A stretch of 63,526 bases of DNA, counting the filler, from Kipferlia bialata (Eukaryota): the NCBI GenBank assembly GCA_003568945.1. It is 3 parts of 3 records of this genome, joined end to end, with 100 filler letters (N's around TTAATTAATTAA, not from the genome) between each part and the next. Parts side by side here need not be neighbours in the genome. Positions count along the whole stretch, not along the records: positions 1 to 28,025 come from BDIP01000159.1; positions 28,126 to 56,053 come from BDIP01000160.1; positions 56,154 to 63,526 come from BDIP01000203.1. One strand, 5' to 3'. How positions within the stretch are numbered: the stretch's first letter is position 1; each line of letters opens with the position of its first letter. This document shows positions 577 through 63,281 of this stretch, piece after piece. The position numbers and the translations under genes are program-made. A model generated the notes under the pieces. The model worked only from the letters and a program-made list of their open reading frames with translations, searched no databases and was not told where the DNA came from.

Positions 577-1695
577 CTACTTGGATCTCTTCTTGTGTGA
601 CTTACTCTTCTTCTTCTTCTTAGAGGGTTCCCTCCCCTCCATCTTCTCTCTCTCCCTCTGCGTGTACCCTGAGACCTCCCAGTCCTTCTCCCTGGCAGAG
701 GCATCCCTGGACCCGGCTAGAGCATCCCTAACTACCTGATGTTAGGGATATATATATATATATATATCACTATAGGATGTATCAGCAGAGAGAGCATCCC
801 TAACTACCTACTATAAGGGTGTCATATAACAACAGACATATATATATATATATATATGCATCAGTGGAGCCAGAGAGGGCATAGGATAGTATCTAAGTAT
901 AGAAATACATGTCAGTACATATATAGTGAGAGATAATCAAAGAAATAGGGCATCACGCACAACCTAGCTGTTAGGATAGTAGTAGTCTATACATATACAT
1001 ATATATAATGAGAGAGAATCTAGGGCATCACACACAACCTAGGGTCAATAGAGAGGCTGTCAGTAGAAATAGTATCAACAGCTATCAGTGTACAAGAAAC
1101 AGTACGTATCAATGCAACTACTATATTTAGGCATTACCTTAGGCGTCACTTTGGTCAAATAGCACTTACAAGCACAGCATATATATATATATATATATAT
1201 ACATTTAATAAGTGTTTACCTTTGGCGTCACCCTGAGGCATATCTCGATGTCAAAGTATATACATAGTATCCACCAGCATAGTATACTTATGAACATATA
1301 TATTACATGTAGATATATATATATATTAATATTATGGTGTATACCTTGGGTTGCACCCTGAGGCATATCTCGATGTCAAAGTTGTCGAGGTACAGAGAGG
1401 GGGAACGGCCCGGCTTGACAAACCACTTCCTGAGGGTTAAGTATATATATATAATACATAAACGTATACCAGTATTGTATATAATACTTCCTGAGGGTAA
1501 GTTTTTAGATAACATATATATATATATACTTTGAAACTGACGAACATGCGCAGCAGTGCGAGTGCTCTCTTGAGAGTGAGCTATCTTCCGTCTCTCTCTC
1601 TCATTCTCCCACCATTTGTGTATATGCATAATAGTATCTGATTAATATGCGCTGCAGTGCCAGAGCCCTCTTTGAGTTGTCCTCCATCTCATCCA

Positions 1696-1729
<34 letters not shown>

Positions 1730-3572
1730 CATACAGTACCTAATGAATATGCGCTGTAAGGCCAGTGCTCTCTTTGAGTTGTCCTCCATCTCATCAATCA
1801 AGTCCTCCTGTACCAGCATGGCCTCCACAACTGTGTCTGGAGTGAGCATAGTATATATATAAGAGTACCATTCATATGAAAGTATAAATATATATATCAG
1901 GTCCTCCTGTACCAGCATGGCCTCGACCACAGTGTCTGGAGTCAGAATACTATATATATNNNNNNNNNNNNNNNNNNNNNNNNNNNNNNNNNNNNNNNNN
2001 NNNNNNNNNNNNNNNNNNNNNNNNNNNNNNNNNNNNNNNNNNNNNNNNNNNNNNNNNNNNNNNNNNNNNNNNNNNNNNNNNNNNNNNNNNNNNNNNNNNN
2101 NNNNNNNNNNTAATATATATATATTATACATAATTATATAATTGGTATTAATATGGAAGTGTATATACATGGACGTCCTGTATCAGCATGGCCTCGACCA
2201 CGGTGTCTGGAGTGAGCATTACATGAATACATAGGAGCTGGGAATGTACAAGTATATGACTGCTAGTATATATATACATGACACTGATACCTATACTCTC
2301 TTATGGAGTGCGGGTTGTCTCTATGTATACTATATACCATACACATACTATATACTATAAGCGTAACTATATATATATATATATACTATATGGGTAAAAC
2401 ACTGGTACCTATGGAGTGCGGGTAGTCCCTGGGCAGGCCCTCGAGGTGCCTGGTGTAGAAGACCCTGGGGTGAGGTGATTATATAGAGCAGTACAATATC
2501 AATGACTCTCCCTGCCTCATGAACCCCCCCCCCTCTCTCTCTCTATATATATATATATAGTGGAATTACTCACTCTGAGTTCATGATGTCCCTCTCTGCC
2601 TCGTGGACCAGTCTGTTAGGACATCCTAGCAGTGTCTGCACGCTCTTGGCAGGTATCAGCAGATGCCCCTCCTCCTCGTGACACAGGTTGTTCTGGATGA
2701 ACTCCTGCGTCTTGTCCCGACTCTTCTGCCTGTCCCGCTGCTTACCAGCAACACCCTCCCTTCTGTTACGCTCGTCGATGGCACGCAGCAGACGCCGCTT
2801 GCCCTTGAGGTCTAGAGTGGGGTGGTCTTCTAGTAGGGATAGTCTGGGGTCGAGGGGGGCACCGTCAGTCTCGACACGAGCCCTGGCCTTGACCTGGAGT
2901 GAGAAGACTAGAAAAGAACACAATTCTATAACATAAAGTGAATGATTTCTATAGACTAGATGAAAGTAATCAGACTGGGAATACACCTGAGCACTGGCCT
3001 TGACCTGGGTTAAATACAATCAGTGAATATATATATATATATATGCATTTACATAGCCTTAACTTGGACTGTATCTCCTCGATGGTGTCAGACTCTGAGT
3101 CAATATAGCATGAATGTATACTCTATATATATACAGTATCAATATAGTATATATACAATGATACCTTTGACTGTATCTCCTCGATGGTGTCAGACTCTGA
3201 GTCACTAGTCTCCTCTGTGTCTGACTGTACAGAGTATGTGTCACTGGTCTCATCCACAGACTCAGACCCAGAGGCAGAGTCCTGGGGTCAGAAGTCCAAA
3301 TATGCAAGAATAATGAATACTATCATGTAAGATGCATATATAGAGGGAGTCTCATCAGCAGACTCAGACCCAGAGGCAGACTCCTGAGAGTCAGAGGAGA
3401 CCATAGTATAATGGAACAATATATCCAAAGAGTCCTAAGTAAGTAGCCAGTAGACAGCAGTAATACATATATCTACACTTAGCATCAGATAGACCACTGT
3501 ATAATGTGTACCTCAGTCTCTGTCTCTGTCTCTGCATCTGTGTCACTATGTCATACAAAGAATACATAAATG

Positions 3573-3603
<31 letters not shown>

Positions 3604-4491
3604 CCTCTGTCTCTGTCTCTGTCTCTGCATCTGTGTCACTGTCCAGGTTGGCCTCCCCAGCTGTGTCACCGTGCTCCTTGTTGAACCTAGTTCATTAGAG
3701 ATACAATATACAAAGGAGTAGGAGGTCAGAGATACATTATACTAATAGTACATTAATTAATTAATTAATGAAATGAGTAATATATTTATATATAAATATA
3801 TTTCGAGCTGTGTCACCGTGCTCCTTGTTGAACCTAAGGGGTTAGAGAGGATGGAGTATCATATCAGTATTATCAATCAAAGATACACTCTGACTCAGAG
3901 ACATGTAACACCAGTCTGTATGTATCATCTACCTATACTCTGCCTCTGCAAAGGTGAGTGCTCTGTCAGTGAGCCATGCATACTCATGCCCATCACTCTT
4001 CTCAGCCTCACTGCCATCCTTGCCATCCTCAGTCTCTCCACCAATGTCATCATCGTGTCTGGACCTGGCTGACTCATACTCAGAGGAGCCCTCCTGAGTA
4101 TAAGATATGATATATATACATAAATATATATAAGTATCCCTATATACATGCATACATACTCGTAGTCAGAGGAGTCATCCTGGCTATGAGAATGAAAAGA
4201 GGGTACTATTAGAGATTAGTGAAATGTATATAGTGTATATATAGGTTTGTATAAATATATGTATATATCGTAGTCAGAGGAACCGTCCTGAATAATAGAA
4301 TGAAGTATTAGAAATACATAATTATATATCTATAGTAATGAGGTTAATGTATATATATATACTATCCCACCTCGAATGTGTCGTCGTCTGACTCTGTCCT
4401 AGACTCCTCTGGGTGGGACAGGGTTACCCTCTTCTTCTTGACAGGCACGGACTTGGCCTGAGATGAGTATACACTATATATGTATGTGTAT

Positions 4492-4528
<37 letters not shown>

Positions 4529-7500
4529 GAGAGTGACCCTCTTCTTCTTGACAGGCACGGGCTTGACCTAGGATTAGAAACCAAGTATATAGATACTATA
4601 GAGCAAATCGAGAAGGTCCTACCACAACAACAACAAAGAAGAAATATACCCTACCTTCGGCTTGAGCTTGGTCTTGGGTGCGTGACCGGCTGCATCTCTC
4701 TTCGCCCTCCTCTCTCTCTCCCTCCGCTCTAACTCCTCCTCCTCTCTCTGAGCAGCACTCTTGGCACCCAGCCTCGCCTTCGCAGCGGCGTCTCTCCTGG
4801 CCCTTCTCTCCCTCTCCCTCTCCTCCGCCTCTCTCTCCTCTCTCTTCGCCTCCTCCTCCTTGGCTCTCTTCTTAGCTTCCCTCTCAACCAGATCAGCAGC
4901 CTTGATTCTCTCTCTCTCCTCAGCGGCTAGAGCGGCTCTCCGGGCTCTCTTTGCCTCTACAGCCCTCTCTCTCTCCACCCTCTCAGCCTCCTCCTGCTGT
5001 CTTCGCATCTCCTCCTCGGCCTCCCTCTTACTCCTCCCCTCCTCTATCAGCCTCGCTCTCTCTGCGTTGTGCTTCTGGATCCTGGCAGCAGCCTCGGCCT
5101 TCAGCTGCCTCTTGGACCTCTCTCTCTCTCCACCAACACTAGCTCTCTCTCTCTCCCTCCTCTTCTTCACCTTCTTGATGGCCTCTCCCTCCAGCTGTTC
5201 AACCTCAGCCTCACTAAGACTGAAGATAGTACCCACTACCTCCCTGGGGTAGCTGTAGCTGCCTGTCTCCTGATCACAGCAGTGTCTGTGCGCCTCCTTA
5301 GCTAAGTGCTGCTTACCAGGAGAGGGACCCAGTTTAGACAGTGCTGTCAGTACATCAGCCCCTGCCGCCCTGGTTCCACTGGCACCCATAAGACGGGGAA
5401 CAGGGGGAGAGGTGGATGATGCACCACCTTCCACATCCTCAGTGGGTGGGGTGACGTGGCTGTTGAGGAAGGTGATCCAACTGCCAAGCTCGGGGTCTTG
5501 CAGAGCCTGAATATCAGCACACATGCAACACTACTCTAAATATATATATTATTATACACATTAATGTATATATATATATATATACCTTTTTGGCAGCGAC
5601 TACGTCCAAGGGCAGACAGTCCGACATGGCTCTCAGAGAGGGCTGCTTCTTGGTCTTGTCAGCCTTGGTGGGGTCGCCATAGTGCCTCAGGGAGGCGAAG
5701 AGCTTGGCAAACAAGGACATCTTGAGAGCGGCTATGGCCTCTGCGGAGAGACGTCTATCGTACAGCCTGACGAGTCTGTCCAGTAGGTGCAGGGACTGGG
5801 ACATCGTCTGCTTGGAGGAGGCGGAGGTGCACTTAGATATCATTCTGAGGTTAGGAATTGACAGAGATAATATGAAAGTGGGTAAGATATATAGTGTGTA
5901 CATCATCTGCTTGGGGGATGGGGAGGTGCACTTGGATATCATCCTGGGGGTAAAGGAGAGAGTATAAGAGAGATTAAAGTAATGGAGAGATTGGGGTAAA
6001 CGAGAGATTAACACATAGATTGTGTAGGAGGAAGAGGTGTACTTGGATATCACCCTGAGAGGTAAGAAGGAACATCGAAGATTGGTAAGACAAGGAGAGT
6101 GTGTGTATATAGTATATATCATAAGTCCCCGCCTCTGTCTAGCTGGTATGTCCCCAGGCAGAAATAGTCTTAGTGTATAATATATATATATATATACTTC
6201 GTATATATGTAGTCCTCACCTCTGTCTAGCACTTGATACAGCAGGCATGTCCCCAGGCAGTGATAGTGATAGAGTATCACATACATACATGCAAATATAT
6301 GTATACACATATATATAGTACATATGTAGCGTCTACCTTTGTCTAGCACTAGATACAGCAGGCATGTCCCCAGGCAGAGGTGCCTCTCTGCTAGGCACCA
6401 CCGCCGCTGTCACACCCACACCCTGCACAAAGGGTCTCTCTCTCTCTCTCTCTGGCTGGACAAAGGGGGGCAGGGCAGGTGGTACGGGAACTGGGGGTGC
6501 GTTGGTACCTGTACCACTGATGGTGCCATAGGTACTGGATGTACTAGAGATGTCAGTACTGGTTGTTGTGGTGTCAGTGGCCTCTGGTACGGGGGGCAGC
6601 TTCTCAGCAGTAGAGGTAGAGACAGCGGGAGACACAGCCTTCTGAGTCTTATGGGTCTCAGTAGGTCTTGCAGCAATGGGTACAGAGGGAGGACGGGGGC
6701 GGAGAGGCCTAGAGCTGCTAGGAGCGGTAATAGCTACAGCGGGTGCCTCCACCACTGGTCTTGGCTGCAGAACACGTCTAGTCTTTGGTACAGGCTTAGG
6801 TACATCAGTGATGTCACCACTGACCATGCTCTCGAGTAGTGAGGTGGGTATGGGGGCATCACTGGATGTGGTCACAACAGCCTCTTCCACAGCCATATCC
6901 ACATCACCCTCTGCCTCTGCCTCTGAGTTGACATCAACAACAGGGTCCACTGCACCCACAGACTCTACAGTGGCACCCTGTATCTCTCTCTCTACCTCTC
7001 TCTCTCCCTCTGGTTCAGCAGGTGAGGGCGACTTCTGAGGCCTCTTACTCTCTGGCCCTGCTACATCGGCCTCTCCCTTCCTAGCCCTCTTGGCACCAGG
7101 CTGCTGATCTCCCATAGTATCTCTCTCCCTCTCTCTGACACTTGAAGTCTCATCCACTGCCTCTCTCTCTCTCTCCTTCTCTCTCTCTCCCTTGGCCTCT
7201 GCCACAGCCCTATCCCTCACCTCCATCACCAGTGCGGCAGTGCACCCCATCTCCTTAGCCACAGATATGACATCAGACTGCAGCTCACCACTGTCCTTGT
7301 GACAGTACCACTTCTTGATGAACCGGTGGCTCTCAGCCTCTATGAGACCCTTGGACAGCTCGGAATCAAGGGCAGAGACATACCGCCTATAGGAGGCCAG
7401 CTCCACTGCCATGTCTCCCTCCCCACCGGCATTGACGTCGAGGGTCTCCACGTCCAGCACCTGCTCCTCCTCGGGTATGGACACCTCCACCTCTATGCCG

Positions 7501-9760
7501 TCAGAGTCTCCATCCAGCACAGTCATGGTGGGTGCCACCCCAGCTGCCAGTCTCTGCTGTCGGAGGGTGGCCTTGCGCCTCTCGACTGCAGCGGCCATCC
7601 TCTTCAGACTGGCCTGCGTTAGACATACTCGTTTCTCTTATTACTCATTGTATATAATTCAATAATGATAATTATCCCAATGATGCATATTGTGATGATA
7701 TAATATATATCTTTGCAATCATCTTGCTTATCAGGTTCCTTGGAGACTTGCCTGTCTTGCCTTCTCTTTCCGGTACTGGTTCCTCTCCTGTGTCAGCCTC
7801 CTCTGCTCCTCGGTGACGGTGGCGTTCAGCACAGTCTGACTCACCTTGTTATTAATAGTTGTATAGTGAAATAATGAATTCTAATTGTCGGCTGACTGAC
7901 CTTATTCATAATAGATGTATTGTACAATAATGATGCTAACTCTAATTATAATTGTCAGTAATTCCCAGGCACTTAGCACTGTCTGACTCACCTCTATCTC
8001 TGGATCAGGGGCATACTTGCACTCTACCTCAGCAACAGACAGACCGACCAGAGGAGGGGTGGCTGGGGCCTTAGCAGTGGCAGTAGTGGCACTATTAGGG
8101 TCTGAGAGGGTGGATGTTACTGCAGGGCTCTCTTGTGTAGATGTAGGGGCCATATCCACATCCCCCTCCTCCTCCACTGTCTCTCTCTGTGGCTGGGTGT
8201 TACGTGCACGCACATTCATCACAGCTGTCAGTGCGGGTGATGCACCATCAGGAGGGGGTACAGTGGGAGGGGGTAGAGGGTCAGGCTTCCGCATAGCTAG
8301 TATCAGTTCATCTTCCTCCTGTCTCTCTCTCTCTCTTTCCTTTGCTCTGGCCCGTACTCTGTCCTGGCCGTCCTAGAAGGTGAGATGTCTATAATACACC
8401 CACATATATGAATACTCACCCACAAATGTGTATGTATGAGTTTTCACTGTCGCAGAAGGGTATTTGATGCCACTCTAAAACATAATAAGTGAGTGTATGT
8501 ATCGTAGGTGAGGTGCCATTTACCTTATACACCCAGTTGGAACACTGAAGCAGCTGACAGACCCTGTCTATACAGAGGGTGGGTACAGATGAATCAGACG
8601 CTCCAGACGCTCCAGACGCTGTAGGAGGAGGGAACATGTCTGCTATGAACTCTGACTTGGCATCGTTCCTGTGGGTGTCGTCAGTCAGCTCCTGGGGGTT
8701 ATGAGTGGGTGATATTGAATATGAAGAAGCACACGTAATCATACTCTCCTCTCATGAGATATATACGCACTCACACACAATGAAGTGTAGTGTTAGGGAT
8801 ACTAATCCTTCTGCTCCTCACACCTGCAGACTCTCGTAGAGCTGTGCTATACGCATTAACACTCTATTAGCATATACATATACACATACACTATAAACCA
8901 AACAGTTAGCCCACCTGCAGTCTCTCGTAGAGCTGTGCCAGCCCTAGCTTGAGAGTGTGTCTCCTGTCCCTGGGGTATGTGGACAGACAGTCCCTCTTGC
9001 AGTACTGACACTTTGTGGGTATGGGAGGGGGGCCGGAGTGCTTGTACACCTGCTCAGTACTGGTGTTAGACAATATGATAGTGGCCACATTCTATAGTAT
9101 ATGGAGTGTACCACTAGTACATAAGTATAGTGGAAAGGTAGCACTCTGGCAATAGTACAGATGTATAGTATGGAGGCGTTACATGTCACTCACACAGCTC
9201 AATAGGGAGATGTAGTACTGTGTTAGGGTTAGATGCCCATACCTCTTGCCAGCTACCAGAGCTGTGAGGACTGCCTCGGATACTCCCTCACCCTTCCCAC
9301 CCTCTCCCTCACTCACATCCCAGTCAACCTCATCATCACTCTCCTCTGCACCCTTCTGTGCCATCTCCACATCCCCAGTCTCTCTCTCTCTCTCCTTCTC
9401 ACCCTCTCCTCCCACCTCCTCGACCTCAGTATCGCTCTCTGTGTCACTCTCTGTCTCTGAGTCTGAGAATGAGGGTAAGGGCGGCATGGGCTGCGACATG
9501 GTCCACTCCTTAGGCACACCCTTGGCATCCACTGAGGGTGACTGTATGGGGGTGTGGGTGGGTCTAGGTGGGGGTGGGTGCACGGCGTCGAGGAGTGACA
9601 TGACAGCAGTGGAGCAGAGGGAGTGGAACACACCCTGTATGGCTGGGCACACTATGGGGTTGGATGTGTCGAAGAGGACATGGGCCGTGGAGGTGATGTG
9701 GGAGGGGGTGGAGGCGGCAATGTCTCTAAGAGGCTTGGGATCCATACTGGGGTTGAGTTG
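577..9760 (-). CDS. Large multi-exon hypothetical protein, largely low-complexity/charged coiled-coil; 5' end unresolved
   Basis: Series of GT-AG bounded open exons (e.g. ~9243-9760, 8913-9050, 8524-8691, 7992-8373, 6337-7613, 5585-5844, 4655-5514, 2574-2893, 1344-1429) ending ...EPSKKKKKSKSHKKRSK* (TAG 577-579). One CxxC (KCQYCKRDC). No family recognised; could be more than one gene. Confidence 0.6.
1960..2110. other. Scaffold gap (N run) inside an intron
   Basis: Run of N flanked by (TA)n. Confidence 0.97.
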
Positions 9761-10909: not shown

Positions 10910-12839
10910 CTAAGGTGCCTTATTGCATCCTGTGCACAGAAAACACGATTGGCAAAAATTGGTGGTATACAAACACTGCCCTGACGGATACTTTATACGC
11001 ACTATTGGCAATGATCCTCTACCTATACCGTGGCGATGTCCCCCTCCACAGTCGGTTAGGGACATCGTGTATATAACATATACCATATATACATTTGCAA
11101 CTACGTATACACACAATCACTCTCATTGATAGTGACTCTATGTATACCTGCCGTGGCTATGTCCCCCTCCACAGTCTGGGTGAGGAACACTGAGGTGCCG
11201 TGGAGGTACTTGCCCATGGCATCTAGGTACTTGACAGTGTAGCGCAGCTTCTCCTTGCGGTGCTCGTCAGCGGTGTCTCTAGCCCTTGCTTGCTGAGGGT
11301 AAGAGGAAAGTGTGAGTATTTTGCTATACTTCATTGGGTTGCTTGAGACATGTTTCCGCCCGGATGTGTGACACCTGGTATATCAATCATACAATGGACC
11401 ATTGTAACAACGGTTGCTGCTATCATACCTCTGCCTCCACTATCGTGCCACCCATCATGAGGTCAGCAGTCTCAGCTGCCTGCATGGCCTCGATCAGACT
11501 GGGGGTGAGATATATATATACATATTCTATATACATGATTTATATAGAACGAGACACATACAGGTACAGACTGCGGTTATGAGATATCTAGACATAGTCT
11601 GATACATTCATGTGATAGGACTGTGATGTACTACAGATGCATCTCCTCATCTCGAAGTATCCAATCAAACATTGATTATCAAAGAGTCACTCTTTAAGAG
11701 TAGACTCCCCAACTTGTGGACACAATGAGACTGAATAGTCGGTGGTACATACCTTGACAGTGTGCTTGTGGCCTCTCCTATCCTCTTCTGAGCAGCGTCA
11801 AACTGATGTTAGGACGTATATAACTCTAGCTCTATATACTCACTCCATGAATATCATAGGGAGTTCATATTATGTATATAATATGAATAGACACATACTA
11901 ATTCAGTATGTATACCTCTACACGCTTCTGACCCAGCACCATCAGGACAGGAGTGCTGTTCCACCTGTCACCCCACTTGGCCTTGTACATACTGTCCAGA
12001 GTGTATACCCTGGAGGTTTTATGGAAGGAGGTATATCATACATGAAAGAAGACCTTCTTGTTCGGGGTTGGTAGGGTGTGGCACAAAGAGACAGGGGGGG
12101 GGGGGGCGAGAGATACCTAGAGAATGCCTGGTCCACCTTATACCATACATAAAGCATAGAGAGACTTGGGTGGTGTTGATAGTGTGGGGCAGAGAGAGAG
12201 AGAGAGAGAGAATCTCTCTAGTAGAGATACCTTGAGAATGCCTGGTCCACCCCCTCTGCCAGTGTCTGGACCTCCTGCTGAAGTGACTTGATAGGGCCAC
12301 ATACATCGTTGATGGAGGTGATGGTGCGGGACATGCTTCCTGGTAGGTAAGACATATACCATACTGATAAGATATACCACTATAAAAGGTGCGGGACATG
12401 CTTCCTGGGGTGTCTGATGGAAAGAGGGGTGACATAGACTGGTGTGACATGTGGGCACAAACCACTATAAAAGGGGATGCATGGGTATTAATACATTGCT
12501 ACCTGTCTCCTCAGTACCGGAACCCTGAGTAGGGGTGTCAGGTACACTCTCTGGTACTGGGGGCATGTATACACGGTGTTGGTAGAGAGTGTGTGTCACG
12601 ATTCGTGACACGAATACTCGATAATCAACTTCTGAAAAAAGGGTGCAATCCAAAGACTTTGACTCCGCATCTTGGGCTATCCTTTCCCTCTCTCTAGACT
12701 CTGTGTGTCTGGAGGTAGAGATGGAGAGTGGACGGCGGTACATTGAGATGGAGAGTGGACGGCGGTACAACACGTCAGCTGCCCCCAAGACTACTCTCAA
12801 GGAGAGAGTACCCGAGACCGGTCCTGCCAAGCCAGTCAT
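10910..12839 (-). CDS. Multi-exon hypothetical protein
   Basis: Candidate ATG at 12839 (MTGLAGPVSGTLSL...). Internal exons include LIEAMQAAETADLMMGGTIVEAE (~11428-11498) and QARARDTADEHRKEKLRYTVKYLDAMGKYLHG... (~11148-11291). Putative last exon GCNKAP*. Confidence 0.45.
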
Positions 12840-13235: not shown

Positions 13236-15424
13236 CCCTTTGCCTTTGTTGAGCTGCTTGAGGCCAATCAGAGAATGCTGGACAGCACAGACAGTGGCAG
13301 TATCAGAAGGTATGGTATATATGCAATATTGTATATATAATTGAGGGAGAGAGAGACTAGGGATGCTGGACATCACAGACAGTGGGTCCATCAGGATGTA
13401 TAGAAGATGGGAAAGTGCTACACATATATGGAGAGAGAGAGATAGACCTGAGGATGCTGGACAGCGACTGTGTCATGTGTGATGTCTATATCTATATATA
13501 TCATCCTGCCCCCTGACCCCCAGCTACGGTGTGATGAAGGTGATCAAGAAGAAGTACACATCCCTCAAGGACAAGATGGACAAGACAACAAGGCAGAGGT
13601 ATGGGTGGATGATATGTAGAATACTATAAGTAAATATGGTGCACTTATGTCCCCTCCTCTCTTCATCCCCCACCCCAGGACCAAGAAAGATGGTGATCCC
13701 CATTATCTATATATGTGTATGTATGTATACATATATGTATATATATATTTATATCTAAGTATCCTGCCAACCCCCCCACCCCCAGGACCAAGAAGATGGT
13801 GATCCCCCTGATCGAGAGGATGAAGGAGGGTGGGGCATCCAGCCATCATCATGTCACACTGGTCAAGGCAGAGGCACAGGCAGAGGGGAAGGCAGAGACA
13901 CAGGCACAGGGCAAGGGAGAGACACAGGCAGAGGGCAAGGGAGCCGCAGAGGCTAAGCCGGTCAAGTGGTGAGTGGGGGTATTGTATAGTATTCATATAT
14001 GTCATTGTCTATGAATTTATATTCTTCATCTGATCTCCCCAGGCCCCAGGTGTACCACGTGGAGACCAAGTACCCCACCAAGAACCAGGGCAACATGGAG
14101 ACTAGGGAGAGGTATAGACAGATAGATATAGATACCTACACACACACACATATATATACATACATATATACATACATATACATATATATACTCCCTCTTC
14201 CCCATCAAGAATCAGAGCAACATGGAGACTAGGGAGAGGTGTGAATAGATATAGATATATATATATATATATATATACTCTATCCCTCTCTCTCTCTCTC
14301 TCCCACCCCTTAGGATCCGCACCAGACTGAGGTCTGTGCTGGCAGACATCTCCACCTCAGACCCTGTCCTCGCACAGTCCAGCCAGGTGTCGGCTGATGA
14401 CCTAGGTACAGGGGTTCTATATCTATATTCAGTATATGAATACCCTATATGGTATAGTAGCCACGGGTACTCAATCTCTTTCCCGCTGTATGTACCCAAT
14501 CATAACCCCCCTCACCCCCAGCCATTGTGCTTGAGTGTGAGATGTTCCAGAAGTTCGGACTGGACACAGACTCCGCTGGGTACAAGGTATAAGCAACATA
14601 TGTGAGAGTAGGCACCCTGAGTGCATTATATAGATATATGTTTATATTCTATGCACTGTATGTCTTATTCGGTCTGGACACAGACTTGGCTGGCTACAGG
14701 GTATTGTCGAAGTGGCACTGATATGTACCATACACATTCCTATGTATGACCCTGACCCCAGGACTTCTACAGACTGCTGAGGTCTGCCCTGAGGAACAAG
14801 TCCAACGTGCATCTGCAGGTATATATACTACTCTCTACACCGTGGGTGTCATGTGGATGGGTCTGGACTACTTGGATACACTCATCCCTGGTGCTCATTT
14901 CCGTGTTTGTCGTCGTATACTCCATGATTCTACCCCCGCCCCCCACCCCACCCCAGCGCCTCCTCCTGACCGGTGGCATCAGTGGCAGGAAGGTGGTGGA
15001 GTATACCACAGAGGACTTCGAGTCTAAGGTGGGTTGAACTATATCCAATATATATATATATATATATATATGAATATAATATATATCTTAGTATTCATAC
15101 TCCTTTGCTTATACCCCCAGGCCCAGAAGGATGCCCGTGCCGATATAGATATACCCGTATAACCCCATATATCTATAGTTGTATGTGGCACTATACACAT
15201 TCCCCTTCCTCACCCCAGGCCCAGAAGGATGCCCGTGCCGATGTGGTCGAGTACCACAGGGCACTGGCCAACCCGGCAAAGCTGGCTCAGGTGGGGAGAG
15301 ACGGTGACTCTCCATATCTCTCATTGACTCTCTCTCTCTCTCTCTCTCTCTCTCCACCCCCCGTTTGACACTCAGTCCCATGCCAGATAGATGTCATCTG
15401 TATATACCACCAGTTCCTACACTC

Positions 15425-15455
<31 letters not shown>

Positions 15456-15704
15456 ACACACTCACTCACCCCCAGTCCCATGCCAGTGTGTCTGACCAGT
15501 TCCCGTGCTCAAAGTGCAAGGCTAAGCAGGTGGGGGCATGATATATATATGTATCACTGTAGTATGCATCAGTCTCGATCACAGAGTCTCTTCCCCCCTC
15601 TCTCACCCCAGACCACCTACTACCAGCTGCAGACCAGGAGTGCTGATGAGCCTATGACCACATTCTGCACATGCATCCCATGCGGACACTCGTGGAGGTT
15701 CTAA
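13236..15704 (+). CDS. TFIIS: Transcription elongation factor TFIIS (5' end hidden near poly-C tract 12981-13028)
   Basis: Spliced C-terminus [42 protein letters not shown] carries the Zn ribbon and invariant acidic hairpin (QTRSADEP). Central domain II-like exons: [13 protein letters not shown]...[17 protein letters not shown]...[21 protein letters not shown]. Confidence 0.95.
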
Positions 15705-15976: not shown

Positions 15977-18900
15977 ATGCCTGATGAGATTATGGAGGGG
16001 GAGAGAGAGGTAGAGGGAGGGAGGGGGGTAGGTACACCTGTGAAGGGTAAGGGAGGGCCTGCAACAGAGGATGTGCCTGTGGAAGGTGTCAAGGCTGAGC
16101 AGGGGGGGGGAGAGGGAGAGAAGCCCAAGAAGAAGAGGAGGAGGAGGAAGGGGAAGAAGAAGAGGTCCAAGGGGAAGGGCGCCCCTGTGCCGCCATCCAT
16201 CCAGGAGGTGAGTGACCCTGTGTATATCTATGTGTGGCTGATAGTATCAGGTGGAGTAGGCAGTTCACAGACTCTGTGTCAGTGGATAGACTGTGTAGTA
16301 TCATAATATGTACCTATTCCCATTGCCCACCCCCTAGGTTGAGCAGGCTGCCCATAAGGAGGCCCTGTCGGCATACGGTAGCCCCATCAGGTAGGCTAGT
16401 ATGGCACTCACTCTCTCTTCTATAATCCGTTGCACTGCTGTGTCATTGTCAAGGTCATACCTCTGTATGTCTTCTCTTCCCATTCTTCTATTATTCTGGC
16501 CTGGTGTATGTAGAAGTATCGATAGTATGTAAGTGTATGTATCTATATTCCTATCCCCCCCCCCCCCCCCCCCCCCCCCCCACCCCCCCCCTTCCCCCCC
16601 CCCCTGGCCCCCCCCCCCCCCCCCCCCCCACACACACACACCACTTGTTCTCTGACAGACTACTCCGGGGCCTGTGACATACACTGCCATCCACTCCTCT
16701 GCCTTTACATCAGCCCCCTAGGGCATGTATCCCATATATATATAGACTCACATCACTATGTGCATTCACGGCCTTCCTGACCCTAGAGTCAGTGTCGCTA
16801 CTCCAAGACCAACACTGAGCTTGTGTATGAGATGCAACCAGACGGGGGCTGGGTGGCTACCCAGTGGGGGTTCGAAGCACACAAGGGAGGTATGGTGTAT
16901 ACTATAGGTGTTTATACGTACCATATGGTTAGTGAGGCATTATGCACTACGGTCACGGTGAGGGTGGTACCGACACGAGAGAGGTAGTGTCGACAATACA
17001 CATCACAGCGGCTGCCTGGCAAACAGTGTATTACTATACTCAAACTAAAGCTGCGTGTATGATGTTCACTTGGATATTGCTCCTTCCACCTCACCCCAGC
17101 CAGCACTGCCGCCCTTGGCCCAGAGGAGGGTGTGATGCATGTCAAGAACTTCAGACTGCTGCTAGACCCAGGTGTGTATACTATATGTATACTATATGTA
17201 TACTCTGTATGGTAGAGTATCAGAATCACTGGGTTCAGATACTCTCTCTGTATTTGTAGCTACCATGCCTCCACCGTGATAACGTGTAAAAACACCTACC
17301 CCAGACTCCCCGAGTGCAGGTGGTACGGACAGAGCCAGGATTCAGCTGCCCCCAGGTACAGTGCCTCTAGACTATAGTAGTTGTCTATCTTCCTCCCTCG
17401 ACCCCCCCCCACACATATATGTGTGTGCACCCCCGTATACACCCCCCCTCCCCCTTCTCCCCTTTAGGCAAGACTGTGGTCAATGTCCTGGCAGACTACT
17501 TGAGGTTCATGACTCAGCACTCGATGAAGGTATAGAGAGGTTTATGGGTGCTAGGTAGTATTGTGCTGTTTGTTTGAAGAGTATATACACCCTACCTATA
17601 TACATATATATATACACCCTGCCTAGATGGAAGTGGTGCTGCTTCTCGTGAGTATACATATATACATATCTATACACCATATGTATATACGTACCACCCT
17701 GATGCATCATACATATATATATACCACACTGATACTGACACCCCAGGTTCTCCACAGGGCCTACACTGTCTCCTCCTTCTCTGTATCGGATGTGATGTGG
17801 TGCATAGCCGTGCCTGCCAGGGTGAGGCTCAGCTGGTGTTCAATATGCCGTGTATATTGATGGGTTGGCAGTATCAGGCTGTGTGTCCCGTCACCATCAG
17901 TCTCTCTCCCCTACCGTATGTTTCAGTTCACCCCCCTGTGCTACATTACTCCCAGTCTCCTGCTGATACTGACACTGACCCCCAGTGGCTGTATCTATAT
18001 GTATACATACACTGACACTGACCCCCAGTGGCGTGGCAGGGCATGGACTCAGATGAGAGAGGCAGCCACAGAGGCAGGTGAGGCATATATGCATATGAGA
18101 TGGGAACGCAAGGGCACTCATTAATACACTGACACCAACCTCACTACTTATCCCTTGTTGGATCCGACACTTCCCCGAGTCCCGCAGCAGTATCAGTATA
18201 TATAGGTGATACTACTGACCCCAGGTCTCGTCTCGTCCCCTAACAGCCCCCGCCTGCACCTAGTAGCCGAGGCAGAAGCTGCTTTGGTATATATGGACAG
18301 CCTTGGGGTGCGCCAGTATCATTCACATATGTATATATATATGGGAGTGAGTGTGTATTGTCTATACGTATATCTATTACACTGTGTACTCACCTCAGAA
18401 CCCAGAGTTTCTGTCCAACGCGATGCAGAGGCTAGCTGAGGTGAATCTATGTGCAAGTCTTATAGTAAGCTATCGCAGGAGTATGCCCTAGTTCATAATG
18501 GCATTGTCTACAGCATCCTACGCTAGTATCCACACTCACATTACCGTCACACCCTTATGTACCAGACCCCCTTCCGCACCAGAGAGGGAGAGGTGACCAT
18601 GGTGGTGGATGCAGGTATCAGTATGGGTAGTACACATATATATAGTAGATATATAGTAGCTGTAGTACACACTCACATTGTGACCATGGTGGTGGATGCA
18701 GGTATCAGTATGGGTAGTATACAAATACATATATATAGTAGATCTATAGTAGATATAGTGGACACTCATAATGTGACCATGGTGGTGGATGCAGGTATGA
18801 GTCTCAGTATAGATAGTCTATATAGTTGATACATAGCAGATACTGAGACTGAGGCTGAGGCTGCGACTGCCTGTGACCATGGTGGTGGATCCAGGCGCAT

Positions 18901-20824
18901 TAATATGCCGCATATACACGTCTTGTACTGCATTTCATACCACTGCAGTGTGTGGGGTATGAGGGATATGACTGTTGTATATGACGGTGGAAGTCGGAGT
19001 ATTCGAGTTCAGTAACGAGATGCATACACTCATGATTATGAACTCATATGTGTACTGATATATCCTCTCTAACCCCCAGGTGCCACTTCTGTTGACATCA
19101 CCACATACCGGAAGGCAGGGCCAGGGACAGACGCACTCATGCACAGAGACAGGGTGGCCACGCTGGTACGAGTTGAGCTATTCTGCGTCCCCCTACCTAG
19201 CGAGTATGAGGTGTTATGCTCTATCGATATATTCCACTCTATTCTATGACCAATGCCAGGTCAGCAGTGCGTACGACGTCACCAGCGACATGACCCTTTC
19301 TGAGTGTGTAGACTTGGCATTCAGGGTATCAGCACCTGTATATATACACTGATATTTAACACCTATATATATTCACTGATATTTACATACAGACACTGAG
19401 TGTGTAGACATGGCATTCAGGGTATGTGTTCTCTCTCTAATATGTGTGTCTGGGTGAATGCATGTGCTTATCGATGGGTGTCACCATGTTGCATGTCTCA
19501 ACTGCGCATCCTACGATACATATTGAGCATGGTATGGTGTGTATCGGGTGTATGTGTAGTCTCCTGTTCTTTTCGGGGTATTAGATGTGTCTTAGTAAGA
19601 CGTCATACAATGGCCATCTTTGTATATCTGTTTGGTATCATCATTATACCTCTTCCGTCTGTACCCACGCTAGGACTGGGTGGTTGGCAAGGTGTCCCTG
19701 AGAGTGGTAGAGGAGATGGAAAGAGACAGACCAGGGTGAGTTATCTGTATACCCACTGGTGCACATCGTATATAGGTATATACGTATGAGATATCCAAAT
19801 ACGTATCAGTGCTCTCCGGTTGCAAATGGTCATGCCGGGTCTCAGGTCCCAGTAGGAATAATGTCTATGCATACGTGTGTCCCTATTCCCCAGGGCCCCA
19901 ACAACCTGTATCAGTGTCTTTTGTTGTTTCAAATATATTCATCCATATTACTATTCTATACAGGCTATTGTATTCATCTGTACTCCCTTTCTATACCCTT
20001 CATGACTCTCTCACCCCCCAGGGCCATGTACCACCTGTATGACCAGTGGAGGATGGAACGCCGCTTCGATGTGTGGAACGATAAGGTACAATAGAATTGT
20101 GTAGGGCCCTTTCCACGTACCAGTGACTGGTACGGTACCAGTCCCTCTAGATTAACCCAGATGCACTCATACACTGTATTGTATTCTATATATATATACA
20201 CATACAGAACTGTCCGTCATCCGTTGCTTACCTTCCATAACCACCCAGGATTACGACGATCACTACATCAGATTGTCCGGTTCGATGCTAAAGTGCATCG
20301 AGTCCCACCTGGCAGAGGAGGATGTGTTCGCTAGACTGGGGGTGGGTGGTTCTGTATACATCACACATGGGACCAATACACTTCATGGGCAGTCACATGG
20401 GTACTTATATATCATGACTGCCTCTGTCACCGGTGACATTGACATTCACATTCACATTGAAAATTGTTCTACCCTGGCCCTTCATACAGACACTGCCCCC
20501 GAGCCCTATAGTCTATAGGCTATAGACACTATCCATAACCGCTAATCAATATTCTGTACTATTCAGTATACACTGCCTGTAACATCTGTTGGCTGAGCAG
20601 GACAGTATTGGTATCAGTCTCAGACTTCAATTTCATAGGACTGATGACTGACGCTGCCTCTGACCCCTCTAGCCTATATACAATGTATACTATATATACA
20701 ATGTATACTATACACTGTCACTTACCCCTCTAGCCTATATACTATATATACTATATATACAATGTGTACTATACACTGTCCCTGACCCCTCTAGCCTATA
20801 TACTATGTATTATGTATTACATAT

Positions 20825-56217: not shown

Positions 56218-57935
56218 GTCTCTTGGGTGGCAGAAACCATCGCCACCACATACACACACTCAACCACTGGAGAGATACCACCGTCCCTGATGTTCTTCCA
56301 CAGTACGTTGTGTTCTATATTCTCTCTCTTTCTGGCCTTCTCTCTCTCTCTCTCTTTATATATATATATATATGTATATATGTATATGTATTCCTTTCTG
56401 GCCCACTCTCACTCTATATACTTCTCTCTCTCAGTATGCCTGTCTCATATATATAGTCTAGCAACTACCAGTATATATGGGTATATCATCGTCTCACTAC
56501 CAGTCCCCACCCAGGAGTGGATACCAGAGGGCACTATATCTCCACGTATTATAGCATCTCTCCATCTATATTTGTTACTGGTAACGCTCTTCTCACCCTC
56601 AGTCCCCACCCAGGAGTGGATACCAGAGGGCACAGGGGTGACATCCATGTATGGGGACTATGGGGAGGACCCATGCTGGTCGGGGAAGGACTCAGGTATA
56701 TATGTATACATACCTACATATATTCTATGATAAATACAGTACATCAGTATTTATGTGGGACATCAATGTATGGAGACTAGGGAGGAGGCGTTGTGATGTA
56801 GGAAAGACTGTGGTATGTGTCTCTAATATATTCATGATTGAGTAGTAGCTGGAGAGGAATCTAACCACTTCTTACAATCCGTATACGTGTACCCCTCACC
56901 CCCCAGATATTCTCAATGACCTACTTGATGCTGTGGGCAATGCATGGGTCATGTCGGTGGGACACGGTGAGTTGAGTATATTGTCACATTGTTACAGTTG
57001 TACTGTAGGATATAGGAAGAGCACTCCCTCTTCCCGATCTCACCCCAAGACCACGTCAATAACTACTGCCTGGAGACCAGTGACACAGTGCAGCCAAGCA
57101 CAGCTGACCGGAACGTGTCGCTCTGCTACGGTATGTGTCCAAGTATCATATGTATTCCAATATATGTACGTATAGACGATATCACTAATCAGTGGTGTTG
57201 ATGAATATGCTGTGTACGTCTCTCTCTCTCTCTCTCTCTCTCTCTGTACCTGACTCTAGGAGGCAAGACGAGTGAGAAGTCCTACAATGATGGTACATCT
57301 GGAGGCAGGATATTCAACCTGTATCTAGGGGAGGACGGCACTCTCTCCTACATAGAGACCTTTATAGCTAGACAGGACGTTAGTGAGTACTACTCCACTG
57401 AGGACTATTGGGTCACTCTCGAGGCTGGGTCGGCTATGATTCTGGGTGCACTGACAGTGGAGGGATCTTACTATAGGTATGAATCCAATGAGTCTTTGTT
57501 TACATATATATGTGTAAATATGCTATATGGTCACTGTTGAGGCTGGGGCGGCTATGATTCTGGGGGCACTCTCAGAAGAGGGTGCATACTACAGGTATTT
57601 CTGTTTGATGTATTTTACATAGTATATATATATACATGTATGTGTGTGTGTGAGAGAGCTATTGAGGCACAGAAGGGGTACAACAGTTAATTTCATAGGT
57701 AGGGTTGTTTTGATATATTGTTACATATTCCATTAACCCCAGGTTCTTACGTGGCACCAGGGAGTGGCTAGTAGTGGTCATACTAGTGGCCATTGTTTGT
57801 GCATGTGCACTGCGTGGTGCATACTGCAAGAGGAAGGCAGTTGTAGATGAGGATGTGTCTACACCTACAGTGACATCACCAGGCAACACTAGCTTTGACG
57901 GTATTGCTGTCAGTACCGCAGCAGAGACTGTGTAA
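56218..57935 (+). CDS. Calcineurin-like metallophosphoesterase (Dcr2/PAP16-like), 3' part, with C-terminal transmembrane helix
   Basis: LMFFH|IPTQE; MSVGH|DHVNNYC; LCY|GGKTSEKSY...GGRIFNL. Tail WLVVVILVAIVCACAL followed by RGAYCKRK; TAA 57933-57935. Confidence 0.85.
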
Positions 57936-58287: not shown

Positions 58288-61200
58288 TTAGTAGGAAATA
58301 GAAAGGAACGCCAAAACACTGACCTCTGAGTCGGTCTCAGAGAGCACACACACAATCTTAGGCATCTCAAACCCAAGGTCCTTGCTATCCTCGTCCTCAG
58401 GGTCAGTCAGTTTATAGAAAATAGAAAGACTATATAGGGTATCTAATAGTGAATTGCATTACTTTTTTCATTCTAAAGTGTGGAAGAATTACTCATTATA
58501 TTATCAAGTGTTTCACAGTTTTGAAAGCATACCTCAGGGTCAGTCAGCACATTGACCATGGTCCCAGTCACCAGGTCGAATGCCCTCACTGGGAAGTGGG
58601 ATGTCGTGACAAGCATATGTCCAAGCCTGAGGAAGCCTGGACTCACAAGGTCGTTGTCACCACCTGGGGCTATATCTCTTCGCCAGTTGGTGAGGGTATC
58701 CCAGCAACCAGAGGCAGAGAGGGAGAGGTGACCCGGTATGTTATCTTGTGTACGACCGGACGGGAGAATATGGAGCTTCCCTTGAGAGACGAAAGCATCT
58801 CCCGAGAGAATGGGCCGCAGGGACTCTGGACAAGGAGGAAGCTCCAGCCAGTCTCCGCTGACACTGATCTCTCCAGTGCTCTCATCGATACTGACATGAG
58901 GCTCCAGAGCCATCACGACATCCTCCCTCACTAGAATCAGGCGACCACCTAGTTCGACAATGTGATGACTATCTTGGTTGTCAAAACTGAGTTGACAGTC
59001 TGGGATCTCTCCGAAGGTCTCGGAACCAGTGTCTATCCACCACACTCGAACTCTCTCCCACTTCTCTTCCTCTCGGTCGTCTGCAGCGTGACGGGAGTAT
59101 CTGTAAGGGGGTTGTTCACGCCGTACACAGTACACAATACCTCCAATAGGTAGTATCGTCACTGAATGACTGTTCTCTCTGTCTGGCTTTAGGGACGGTC
59201 CAGAGGTAGGACTCCAGTCGGGAAGTGACTCGCCACTAGTCAGTGATGAGAGGTTGAGTGTCCGAGTTGACCAATCGCCCTGAGAGCTGTGGTATTTCAG
59301 ACAGACGACAGACTCGCCCTGCCCATACCTAGGAATTAGACCGAAGAAAATAAAGCGAAATCGCGTATGGCAAGGTATCATTGTAAATATAAAAATAGTA
59401 TGTATGATGAGCATAATGTAATGTGAATACTATGTATAGAGACATCAAATGATTAGTTTCCAAAACAGCGGCAGTTCAATACCTGTGAGTCACACAAGAG
59501 TGGTCCAGGATGTTGTAACTCACAAACTTCGCTTCTCTCTCGGAGTCTGGAATTGGCGTCAGAGTGAGACAGCACTGCCTCTCCAAGTCTTCAGCGACTA
59601 ATGGATACTGGCAGGGAAGAATGCCAGTCTTCTGTATCTGTAGGTCGATGGGTATCCCTGATAGAGGAGTCACGGGGACAGCTAGGGCAGCATCACGTAT
59701 CACACTGGGGTAAGACAAGGCGCTATACAATATGAAATAAGAAGAGAAGACTATGAAACAAATAGTATGTACCTCACAATGGTGCCAGTGAGAGTCTCAG
59801 GCAGCAGAACATGGGAAGAGGGGGTGGCGTGTAGGAAAGAGATCAGACTCTGACAGCCTTCACTCTCAGCCATGTCTCTAAGGTCTAGAACTGGGGTGTT
59901 TGTCATAGTGGATAGCTGAGGACACATCTCAATCCATACTGGGAGGTGGGCAGGGGCAGTGAGGGAGAGCTTAGCGAGTGCCTCGACAAGAGGCATAGCC
60001 TCATTGCCATCAGTGGCACCTAGGCACCCATGGGGAAGAGAGGTAAGCATCTCCATGGCGGCAGCTGAAGGCATTCTCATACACACTCTGTGGTAGAGCG
60101 GGTAGGTGTCAAGCCGGACACGGACAATAGCCTGGGAGGTTAGTATACATGCACATCATGACTACATTGGATGCAATATGAAACATCATTACCTCAGCAA
60201 CCTCCATGTACCAGGGGTGTGTCTGTCTAGCACATCCTACTGCTCCCTCTAACAGATGGGCCAAAGCTGACCCATGAAATCCATCAGCAACCATGGCAAG
60301 ACCCACCAGTCCAGAGGTTTTCCCAGAGCCCTTGGGGTAGAGAGGCGACACTCCAGACACTGAGAGGTTGAGGCCACCCTCGTCGAGCTCTATAGCAGAC
60401 GCCTCTAGAGTCTGGAGTAAGGATTAAGTAAATTAGACAATACAATTAGCAACAGTACACGTGCGACACATTACTACTCATGAATGCTGTTCGTGACAAA
60501 TGGGAATGAGTGACATACCACAGCAAGCCACATCTTAAGGTTCATGGTGACTAGGGAGGCCATGTCGGGATACTTCTCCCCTATGAGACACATCACCCGA
60601 CTGATATGAGTAACGTATATAATTATACTACAGTTTCTGGTAAGCAAAGAAGTAGACGAAATGGCAGTGAAGTACATACCTAGCAACTGGGGTCTCTCCC
60701 AACAGTCCTGCAGCCATCGTAGTTTCTCTAGACAGCAGTGGCCTCAGATACACAGCAAGAGAGGGGTATGTGTCATAGACGGTGGCTAGTGCATCTAGTG
60801 GACAGTCATACAATGACCTATCCCCCTCATCAACTGGATACAGAGTCGAGAGGGGTGTCACCTCAGGCAGACGACTCATTGCCTGGTTGTTAAGAATACT
60901 GGGACACACTCTATGTCACCGAAATCCCAATACTCATGTACATATACACGAAGAGAATACTATGCAAACAACTGTACCTTGATGAGGTCCGGCATAGGAC
61001 ATCCCCAGTTGATTTGGGTTTCTAGCTTGTTCCAAACCACATCCAACAGTGCTTCAGTCACATCTGGGGACTTGAGGGCTATCAGAGCATGTGCCAACAG
61101 AACCAGACAGACATTGTCAAATGAGTGCTCATCAGCCTTGAGACTCATGACCAAGTCCATGACCATGTCACTCACTGAGCAGTGGAGGGTTGTACATAGA

Positions 61201-63281
61201 TCGAGGAGAGAACGAGAATCAGAGGCAACCTCGAGGACTTGTGACCCTGAAGGTTAATGACAATACAAAGTGTTGACACCAGAAGACATAGCAATACCTG
61301 TGAGAGACTGAGTGCTGGGTATGCTTCCATACGCATACAGAGAAGTGCAAGGCCCGATTGGCACACAGGGGTAAGGTCGGTTCTCTTCATAGATGTCTTG
61401 GAGGTCGTATCGGACACACTCATTGGAAGCCATGTCATACTCCAGAGTACCGGCTGGGGATCTCATATAGACACGGTTGCCTTGGGTGAGAAGCACGCAA
61501 ACTCTTCACTCCATCATTAGTAAGTGTATATACTCAATGTTAATATCAACATGCATTCGTATGATTAACAATAGAAACATACCTACTCGGAATGGACACT
61601 GCATGACAGTGGTGATCGGCAGGGGAGGGTGCTCCTTCCACACGCCCTGTGGAGAAAGGGATACATGCGTAGTGTACCTGGGTGGCATATACTCGTCATC
61701 TCTGTCGTGCACTCCACCGAAGATATGCATGTGGCCATCTATCAGAATACTGGCAGAGTTGTTCACCTATTGTCAAGGAATCAGAAGTAAATTCATCATG
61801 AAGCCGAGTATCCTATCAACGCGTGTGTGATTCTAGCACTTTCATACCTAGCCTCTCCCAGAGGTCACACTGTATATATACACGCATATATATACCTATA
61901 CACACACCTATGTACCAATACATCATATGAATAGTACTCCGTACCTCTCCGGGTACATCCATGCCTCTTCCACAGGTGACATAAGATATATATATATATA
62001 TATATATCCTATATATATTATACATATACTATATACTATTCGAATAGCACTCCGTACCTCTCCAGGTACATCCATGCCCCTCTCCCAGAGGTGAGTGACA
62101 GGATCATATACTCTACAGAGCTCTCTCGTGTAGGTGTAATGATCCTCATTCAGCTCAAACGATGAGCCACCCACCACCCACACCCTTCCCTGATGGGCAA
62201 ACACAGCGAAACCCCTCCTGGAGGTGAATATAATACTAATTTGTAATATACATATATATATATATATATCATATGTACTGTATTTACCCCTGGTGGGCAA
62301 ACACAGCAAAACCCCTCCTGGAGGTGAGTATACAAAGTAGAAACAAAATGTATATGTATATATATATATAAATATATATATCATCATCTTGTGTACCTCT
62401 CGTCGTTTCCAAGGTAGGGCCTATCCGCCTCCTCTTCGTAGGTAACTGTATCGGGCTCATACACTGTCCACTGAGGTAAGGATGGGATGTCCACAGGTCA
62501 CAGTATTGGAAACCATACGAATAGAGAGAACATATATAACAACTTTATACACCTACATAAATGGAAGGTATATATTTGTGTTAACTACTGGACAGTCCCT
62601 ACCTACAGTGTAGCCAGGTGTAAGTCCAGTTCATAAATACGTGTATGAATATACCCACATATGTATATACAAATGTAGTGGATAGATAAATATAGATAAA
62701 TAGAGTATAAATCATATTAACATGAGTAAGGCAGCAAGTCCATTCCTGCAGTCTCTCCAGGTGTAGCTCCAGTACCCCTACCCCCGTAGTCTCAGAGTTA
62801 TAGAACACGTAGTGCACGCAGTCTCCAATTCTCACACCCTGTGGGTGAGACATGAAGAAACTATAACACTAACATCCATAAATACAAGACTATTCAGTGT
62901 GTCTACAACTATATATTTACAGCATTCAACGAGGCATTGTATACAGATATCAAGAAATATGGGAGATACAATGGATATGGTTATGACTACCCACCTGCTC
63001 CAGGACTCTGCCTTCCAACATGTCATTGACACCTGGAGCAGGGACTCTCTCCCACGTCCACTCCTGGATATTAGGATGATACACTGTACCTAAACGCGCA
63101 TGAGTGGAATATGGTACAAATAACAATGCACATACATATGCATATTGTGTCCATTCATTGTTATAAACATACTTACATATACTCATACATATATACATAC
63201 ACGCATACTTATACATTAGAAGATGCAGGTACCTTGGATAGACTGCATTCAGCTGTCCCTATGAACCACTCTGGAATTAAC
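58288..63281 (-). CDS. Large kelch/beta-propeller protein with central helical region (5' end at or beyond window end)
   Basis: Kelch repeats RGFAVFAHQGRVWVVGG...VYDPVTHLWE and SASILIDGHMHIFGG...WKEHPPLP. Long exon 58534-59329 with propeller-like W-x-D/GG motifs. GT-AG exons in series. Confidence 0.7.

Follow-up and report, generated by a model that had tools for sequence, protein, structure and literature searches.

Copies of exon edges within introns of Kipferlia bialata diverge like coding sequence

Exon-edge copies in three contigs

The window analysed here (63,526 nt) consists of three Kipferlia bialata contigs joined by N spacers (positions 1-28025, 28126-56053 and 56154-63526) and has the character of eukaryotic DNA rich in introns. 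Fixed-parameter gene finding with hand curation gives 15 gene models without internal stops and 168 introns in total; one model, gH, possibly fuses adjacent genes, which leaves the reading frames unaffected. The Pfam families found are XPG_I (EXO1-like), TFIIS, Aha1_N, IQ and Kelch, with a family match in 7 of 13 exons; an S9 peptidase match (PF00326) is sub-threshold (E 0.0014). The minus-strand 16-exon model is identical over all 1561 modelled residues to the K. bialata database protein P0001 (KIPB_001178), which also supports the GC-AG intron 7751-7614 (-); a representative search returned no P0001 orthologue, its one match being the window's own protein. Our subject is a set of short copies of exon edges, here called echoes, that lie inside the adjoining introns of these genes and differ from the live exons mostly at synonymous sites.

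For the echo scan, 70 nt at every exon edge were aligned to the adjoining intron, with edges paired with other introns as the null; echoes beside terminal exons or exons outside the models (such as 1136-1257, 11028-11053 and 29493-29551) and those scoring under 12 are excluded from the count. The scan finds 51 echoes, 15-60 nt long, in 36 of the 168 introns (21%) and in 10 of the 15 models, against 0.2 in the shuffled-intron null. They fall on 41 edges, so most echoes are single. The first-pass annotation had placed them in introns of most genes; only a minority of introns carry one, and density is uneven among genes (p 1e-4), from 9 of 15 introns in the P0001 model to 2 of 30 in DPP4. The pairs that it had read by eye lie where it placed them, with 4 mismatches in 29628/29766, 3 in 49954/50034 and in 37212/37320, and 2 in 6219/6336 and in 62189/62289; the repeat at 36737 is likewise present, but its true partner is 36829 and not 36827. 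The features that carry echoes, located by the echo scan, are as follows (S, synonymous and N, non-synonymous changes).

1345..9745, minus strand: 16-exon model of P0001 (1613 residues, family unknown), 9 of whose 15 introns hold 17 echoes, 31 S and 21 N
1537..2319, minus strand: cluster of donor echoes 1697-1638 and 1571-1537 (live edge 1799-1740), acceptor echoes 1935-1896 and 2206-2176 (live from 1836) and donor echo 2319-2301
2989..4567, minus strand: echoes 3004-2989, 3102-3063, 3383-3349, 3547-3512, 3833-3806 and 4567-4536
5900..6260, minus strand: intron 6336-5845, with donor echoes 6260-6220 and 6162-6141 and acceptor echoes 6054-6026 and 5943-5900
8824..8847, minus strand: donor echo of exon end 8938-8915, 0 S and 1 N
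12117..12137, minus strand: donor echo of 12251-12231, intron part still alignable
13524..15703, plus strand: TFIIS gene model (Pfam PF01096), echoes 13680-13701, 14200-14238, 14668-14700 and 15121-15144, 7 S and 6 N
18593..18894, plus strand: array resembling amphioxus mirages (see below), exon end 18593-18614 and three donor echoes in units of 87-100 bp
19396..19421, plus strand: donor echo of 19300-19325
29589..35320, plus strand: EXO1/XPG-family nuclease model (Pfam PF00867), 12 echoes, 22 S and 7 N
29681..30130, plus strand: 450-nt EXO1 intron (RNA contig joint 29678-30129), with donor echo 29765-29818 (4 S and 0 N) and acceptor echoes 29877-29912, 29953-29988 and 30043-30078, uncovered by the RNA contig
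30562..30872, plus strand: 311-nt EXO1 intron, removed whole in the mRNA contig, with echoes 30562-30580, 30650-30689 and 30753-30804
31453..32818, plus strand: EXO1 echoes 31453-31487, 31865-31891, 32099-32124, 32342-32367 and 32787-32818
36736..46529, plus strand: Aha1_N and IQ-repeat region (Pfam), six echoes among 53 introns, 6 S and 2 N, at 36736-36768, 37212-37252, 38685-38727, 39769-39800, 45220-45237 and 46515-46529
47234..52339, plus strand: DPP4-like S9 peptidase model (weak PF00326), donor echoes 48701-48724 (identical) and 50037-50056 (2 S)
56504..57570, plus strand: echoes 56504-56534, 56759-56779 and 57529-57570
62288..62317, minus strand: acceptor echo of the Kelch exon (Pfam) 62217-62188, 2 S and 0 N

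Forty-seven of the 51 echoes come to 7 nt or less from their splice junction, and in these the AG is kept in 25 of 26 acceptor echoes and the GT in 15 of 21 donor echoes. Splice scores fall within the live-site range for 15/21 echo donors and 22/26 echo acceptors, and equal or exceed that of the live site in 10/21 and 11/26, respectively; five introns hold an internal donor-acceptor pair. The nearest echo is offset from the live edge by 63-147 bp (about 100 bp), the spacers between them measure 42-130 nt, which is normal intron size, and introns with echoes have a median length of 213 nt versus 89 nt. Acceptor echoes start with GT in 9 of 26 cases versus 28 of 168 exons, a pattern that is suggestive only of recursive splicing at an echo AG|GT. 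We further note that at 32342 (+) and 4567 (-) non-synonymous echo changes (GCC to GTC) create a recursive-splice-like AG|GT at the echo acceptor.

On the intron side, the median depth at which the second mismatch falls is 5 nt, and this holds equally for echoes of 20 nt or more that differ at no more than one site. Whole intron parts are alignable in 7 of 36 units (p<=0.05), so that a minority of units can be called simple tandem repeats and the greater number cannot; plain tandem units with alignable introns occur at the 18593 array (intron parts alignable in the first two units), 45220, 12137 and 62317. The other 29 units bear out the earlier remark that adjacent intron DNA is often unalignable, even next to identical exon parts, and residual intron-part similarity is weak overall (median z 0.8). 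Nineteen of the 51 echoes (37%) have a dinucleotide run at their far junction, against a 20.5% background (p 0.004), an enrichment that falls short of the earlier statement that copies are usually joined through such runs. All-against-all blastn of the window's 168 introns returned no spacer families beyond microsatellite-type matches, and transposon or introner insertion is accordingly ruled out within the window as the source of the spacers. Intron-only or acceptor-only tandem repeats of 26-70 bp are also present (20660-20810, 21119-21224, 19333-19385, 33734-33823 and 17968-18032), and local duplication therefore extends beyond exon edges.

Assembly and splicing of echo-bearing introns

The sequencing evidence comes from one sample, as DNA contigs of run X1 and contigs of run X2 that are spliced and hence RNA; both cover the predominant forms, rare variants being invisible in contigs. 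Independently built X1 contigs bridge the pairs 30043/30131, 31778/31865 and 36736/36828 with 0 differences to the window, and pairs sharing at least 31 identical letters break contigs and are hence unbridged. Contig depth is 436-506 in seven of the eight contigs listed and 313 in the eighth. Since three pairs are bridged at single-copy depth, the echoes are not merged haplotypes, which answers the concern that the tandem copies might be an artefact of haplotype merging; X1 may be the assembly's source sample, so that bridging tests the assembly and not the culture. No second haplotype is seen at 85% likeness over 10.4 kb of this sample's DNA and RNA contigs, and the sole other letters over that length belong to one EXO1 paralog. 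This second EXO1-like gene has single-copy DNA depth, is transcribed (contigs on window 30157-31480), aligns in exon pieces alone, one of them with 6 differences in 72 nt, and has at least one junction in common. As echo donor it is ruled out, its letters differing from both live and echo.

A 2511-nt EXO1 mRNA contig (X2) joins the modelled exons from 29589 to 31626 exactly, with 0 differences. Introns of 450, 311 and 268 nt, which are all three of the echo-bearing introns covered, are removed whole, and the seven scored echoes within them are skipped with no contig cover in this one gene checked. The spliceosome skips internal, equally strong sites in introns of 268-450 nt, whatever the mechanism; splice-site choice may favour the shortest exon, by analogy with the F7 minisatellite described below. 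A second splice site is plausible for 11 of 47 echoes, a count without a control for chance; points at which splicing could swap in register are found in few echoes and nearly always amount to an exon-start GT. These observations speak against the alternative-splicing route that the first-pass annotation had put forward, and its proposed check for echo-specific variants in mRNA returns only live letters in the EXO1 contig. The DNA deletion that it had also offered finds no support as a frequent event, full-depth DNA contigs retaining both copies. Silent-cassette gene conversion operates in systems such as pilS, vlsE and VSG; as to cassette letters in the expressed copy, the EXO1 mRNA contig shows 0 differences from the live exons, at a resolution that hides rare variants.

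Some observations concern the surrounding genes. In the region 29451-29610 a long C run lies ahead of EXO1 exon 29589, and the mRNA extends about 330 nt further upstream; a motif from its upstream end is absent from the window, which makes a misjoin likely at the C run. An uncounted 59-bp acceptor echo near 29451-29610 carries a synonymous GAC/GAT difference. An Aha1_N gene (35697-36236 and 36245-36310), which has a deep RNA contig, runs into a C/T run. Its reading frame continues unbroken through the next exons, but separate genes or a misjoin may lie behind this. An IQ-motif repeat protein of great length is encoded at 37764-46660 (+), in a gene with about 45 short introns that a 9300-nt RNA contig covers in part. 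Repeats 500-680 bp apart at 54397-55940 (54745/55407/55920 and 54397/55075) suggest a minus-strand gene with internal domain repeats.

Divergence and probable origin of the echoes

Over all 51 echoes, comparison with the live exon gives 75 synonymous and 40 non-synonymous changes in 1564 sites, so that the mostly synonymous pattern first read in hand-picked pairs holds generally. Codon position 3 takes 79 of the 115 changes, and by whole codons the residue is kept in 59 and altered in 38. Differing sites number 48 of 241 at four-fold and 32 of 1013 at zero-fold positions, and the differing proportions are 0.19-0.21 for synonymous sites (pS) and 0.033 for non-synonymous sites (pN). A 12-rate likelihood model places the ratio of non-synonymous to synonymous divergence (dN/dS) at 0.13 (confidence interval 0.10-0.20). 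For a dead copy whose live exon is constrained, about 0.5 is expected, because both copies drift at silent sites and only one at the remaining sites; a likelihood-ratio test against this value gives p 1e-8 with one echo per edge (41 edges). The intron-to-exon alignment that had been suggested as a check, run within the window, thus does not match the neutral-copy expectation, and the differences do look filtered by protein-level selection.

The ratio is the same for donor and acceptor echoes (0.155 and 0.154), similar at low and high divergence (0.14 and 0.17), and reaches a worst case of 0.24 when every echo is forced to the junction; in the wrong frames the silent bias is lost (ratios 2.56 and 1.50). 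It remains low for all four bases, which together with the 12-rate model rules out base-composition bias as the cause. Synonymous differences are live-AT/echo-GC in 32 cases and the reverse in 22, none of the 40 changes is a stop and indels occur in 3 of the 51 echoes; with no stops, few indels and no AT drift, the copies look young. Non-synonymous differences occupy 2/237 sites in the RNA-confirmed part of EXO1 versus 21/427 in the low-complexity protein (p 0.006), or 19 S and 2 N versus 31 S and 21 N (p 0.012). Non-synonymous echo divergence tracks protein constraint, unlike plain decay. Exceptions to the clean silent bias are the echoes of TFIIS (7 S, 6 N) and gE2 (0 S, 2 N).

At edges with several echoes, live-private changes are 12 S and 1 N and echo-private changes 13 S and 13 N; sequential duplication with decay predicts at least 85 echo-private N, against the 13 seen. 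Three different letters occur among the copies at 1832 and at 5822, and six private synonymous sites among the four copies at EXO1 30131-30166. These letter patterns require more than two haplotypes.

With amino-acid sites 3% apart, silent sites 20% apart and introns unalignable, echo and live edge have the profile of two alleles or strains and not of a copy and its template. Toy forward simulations (three runs per model) give pS 0.19 and pN 0.03 for birth from another allele at high diversity, 0.16 and 0.02 for conversion from other alleles, and 0.06 and 0.01 for same-molecule conversion with recombination; low diversity gives a ratio of 0.40, and clonal duplication with or without same-molecule conversion 0.47-0.56. 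Among these models the observed numbers are reproduced only with allelic exchange. From the coding-like divergence, the simulations, the multi-echo edges and the exclusion of the paralog we therefore infer capture from homologous alleles. That the echo-live differences are allelic in origin seems quite likely to us; the reading we lean towards is that diverged alleles supplied the echoes, or renewed them, when breaks were repaired between homologs in a recombining species of high diversity. Birth from alleles and later refreshing by alleles are indistinguishable in these data. Among the earlier candidates, microsatellite-mediated capture from diverged haplotypes thus survives in part, allelic capture being the best fit in the simulations and the role of microsatellites reducing to the modest enrichment above.

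As to mechanism, we tentatively propose a route of one-ended invasion and microhomology repair. Alleles would differ at about 20% of synonymous sites, with introns too dissimilar to pair. After a break in or near an intron, the exon-side end would invade the homolog, and synthesis would copy the foreign intron and then 15-60 nt of the next exon. The new end would be joined to the uncut intron stub by microhomology, in place of annealing after flap removal, and the product would consist of the live edge, the stub, the allele's edge and the allele's intron. Unequal exchange inside the exon part could then build arrays of two or three copies and renew them from coding alleles; only partial-exon copies would survive because the spliceosome picks the shortest exon. 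In the available text of PMC8516963, metamonads lack non-homologous end joining, and in fornicates Rad51A is missing and Dmc1 is present as two paralogs, which makes it likely that repair is led by homologous recombination.

Several points weigh against an allelic source. The 10.4 kb show a single haplotype, no second allele is seen there, and metagenome scans and protein searches found no second K. bialata strain. Synonymous counts are not overdispersed among the 41 edges (dispersion 1.0, a value that trimming and the score threshold deflate), where a simple coalescent predicts overdispersion. Allelic introns at 20% divergence are normally still alignable, which obliges this reading to suppose additional turnover of introns. 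Where cells are mostly clonal, duplications from the sister chromatid should outnumber events between homologs, yet in most units the intron part is unalignable. Finally, spacers are never shorter than 42 nt, with no reason evident.

A single hybridisation, in which the echoes remain from template switching as heterozygosity was lost after the fusion of two diverged lineages, with no need of standing hyperdiversity, would fit the single haplotype of the strain and a pS that is uniform near 0.19 and not overdispersed, and deep parental divergence would account for the unalignable introns. We regard it as unlikely, given that the arrays need more than two haplotypes (at 30131-30166, 1832 and 5822) and that the sample's one EXO1 paralog lacks the echo letters. 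It is also improbable that old echoes are under direct selection because they reach protein at low frequency even now, by an unknown RNA route guided by the repeats or by rare DNA deletion. This would account simply for the constraint-tracking dN/dS, its constancy across divergence and a homology made up of exon plus splice signal, and contigs drop rare forms, leaving room for minor use; however, the EXO1 mRNA contig is devoid of echo cover and echo letters, DNA contigs keep both copies at full depth, plausible second splice sites are confined to the 11 of 47 echoes and swap points to exon-start GT in nearly all cases, conversion onto the live copy in the clonal simulation leaves the ratio at 0.52-0.56, and no mechanism for it is known. 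We give little credence to the idea that the echoes are selected spare exon edges, swapped in by repeat-guided RNA or DNA excision without canonical splice sites.

Ordinary mirages, that is, same-molecule tandem duplications that decay neutrally with their microsatellite-rich intron parts changing faster, belong to a class known in amphioxus, and same-size intron-only repeats (20660-20810) and some plain tandem units (the 18593 array, 45220, 12137 and 62317) are of this form; as a general account they are very improbable, since they predict a dN/dS of about 0.5 against the 0.13 observed (worst case 0.24; p about 1e-8), and the low ratio holds for all four bases and in the 12-rate model. An assembly artefact of merged haplotypes is barely credible, for although long C/G runs and N gaps are present, the mRNA sequence upstream of EXO1 29589 that is not in the window makes local misjoins probable, and pairs with at least 31 shared identical letters are unbridged, X1 contigs cross three pairs with 0 differences, seven of the eight listed have a depth of 436-506, and no second haplotype appears at 85% likeness.

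Known systems, intron birth and implications

The closest known structures are the amphioxus mirages of Adh3, the globins BflGb6 and BflGb9, troponin C and PGBD5, described in the available portions of PMC3087553 and PMC3902484 as boundary-spanning tandem duplications with units of 10-160 bp and a proposed route to new introns. Like echoes, mirages span either exon-intron boundary, often keep the splice signals and leave normal splicing unaffected; among the echoes, 47 of 51 span the boundary, splice signals are kept and splicing is undisturbed in 3/3 EXO1 introns. Mirages, as there described, are minisatellite arrays with whole units 81-100% alike and concerted evolution, whereas echoes are mostly single, and the intron part of their units is unalignable in 29/36 and aligns in 7/36. 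Echoes further differ in their metamonad host, their presence in 21% of introns and their coding-filtered differences. We file them as a variant of mirages rather than as members. A silent-change bias in mirages, or echoes in K. bialata, is unreported in the literature searched, the founding Adh3 paper and supplements lying outside its scope.

In the 37-bp variable number tandem repeat of human F7 intron 7, the most upstream donor is used and downstream functional donor copies are silent (PMC1557585, in its available text); unlike echoes, this is a single locus with identical copies in a long mammalian intron, with no acceptor-side counterpart and no allelic signal described there. Duplications mediated by synthesis-dependent strand annealing repair are short, closely linked, include splice sites and number about 1000 in the human genome (available text of PMC2671141); unlike echoes, they are described there as intrachromosomal captures with no tie to exon edges or diverged alleles.

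Intron birth through duplication of an AG|GT site has been described (PMC3265369; the Rogers model as cited in PMC3087553, both in their available parts). Three of the 168 introns have a repeat flush to the junction, with the copy supplying a splice site:

7845..7991, minus strand: candidate intron gain, first 17 nt copying the next exon's start at AG|GT; the intron agrees with P0001
7614..7751, minus strand: GC-AG intron, weaker candidate gain, 8 positions of the first 12 nt matching the next exon's start
58396..58532, minus strand: candidate intron gain, last 15 nt (branch point and AG) copying the upstream exon's end

These three are candidates, by sequence pattern, for recent gains through the echo-forming process. 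Intron 7991-7845 is the one clear Rogers-type case among the 168, beginning with a next-exon copy at AG|GT (11 of the first 12 nt). Unlike a Rogers-type gain, only 12-17 nt are exon-derived and the rest of each candidate intron is AT-rich and unrelated to exons; in 7991-7845 the 3' end matches the upstream exon end at 4/12 nt, so that the interior does not derive from both exons. For this intron-rich fornicate, ancestral retention was favoured, with lineage-specific gain left possible, in the available text of PMC5874029.

What is surprising here is the density in a protist and the robust coding-like divergence in spliced-out sequence, the structure itself being already known. The skipped internal splice sites, at a median intron length near 89 nt, point to exon-centred choice in a lineage whose spliceosome is reduced, to 87 of 174 proteins (available text of PMC6679479). 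If the allelic reading is true, one apparently single-haplotype genome would hold a large sample of alleles, 51 in 63 kb and, by extrapolation, tens of thousands of echoes if the window is typical of the 51 Mb. It would provide a diversity estimate of about 0.2 at synonymous sites together with evidence that homologs recombine in a free-living fornicate, and echoes would record hidden sex within a single genome. The dN/dS of mirages would then be a simple test of cryptic sex for any genome, and the process would offer a way for introns to be born and replaced rapidly in the one fornicate that is rich in them. Through their density and coding-like divergence, echoes make both cryptic sex and the turnover of introns directly testable in fornicates.

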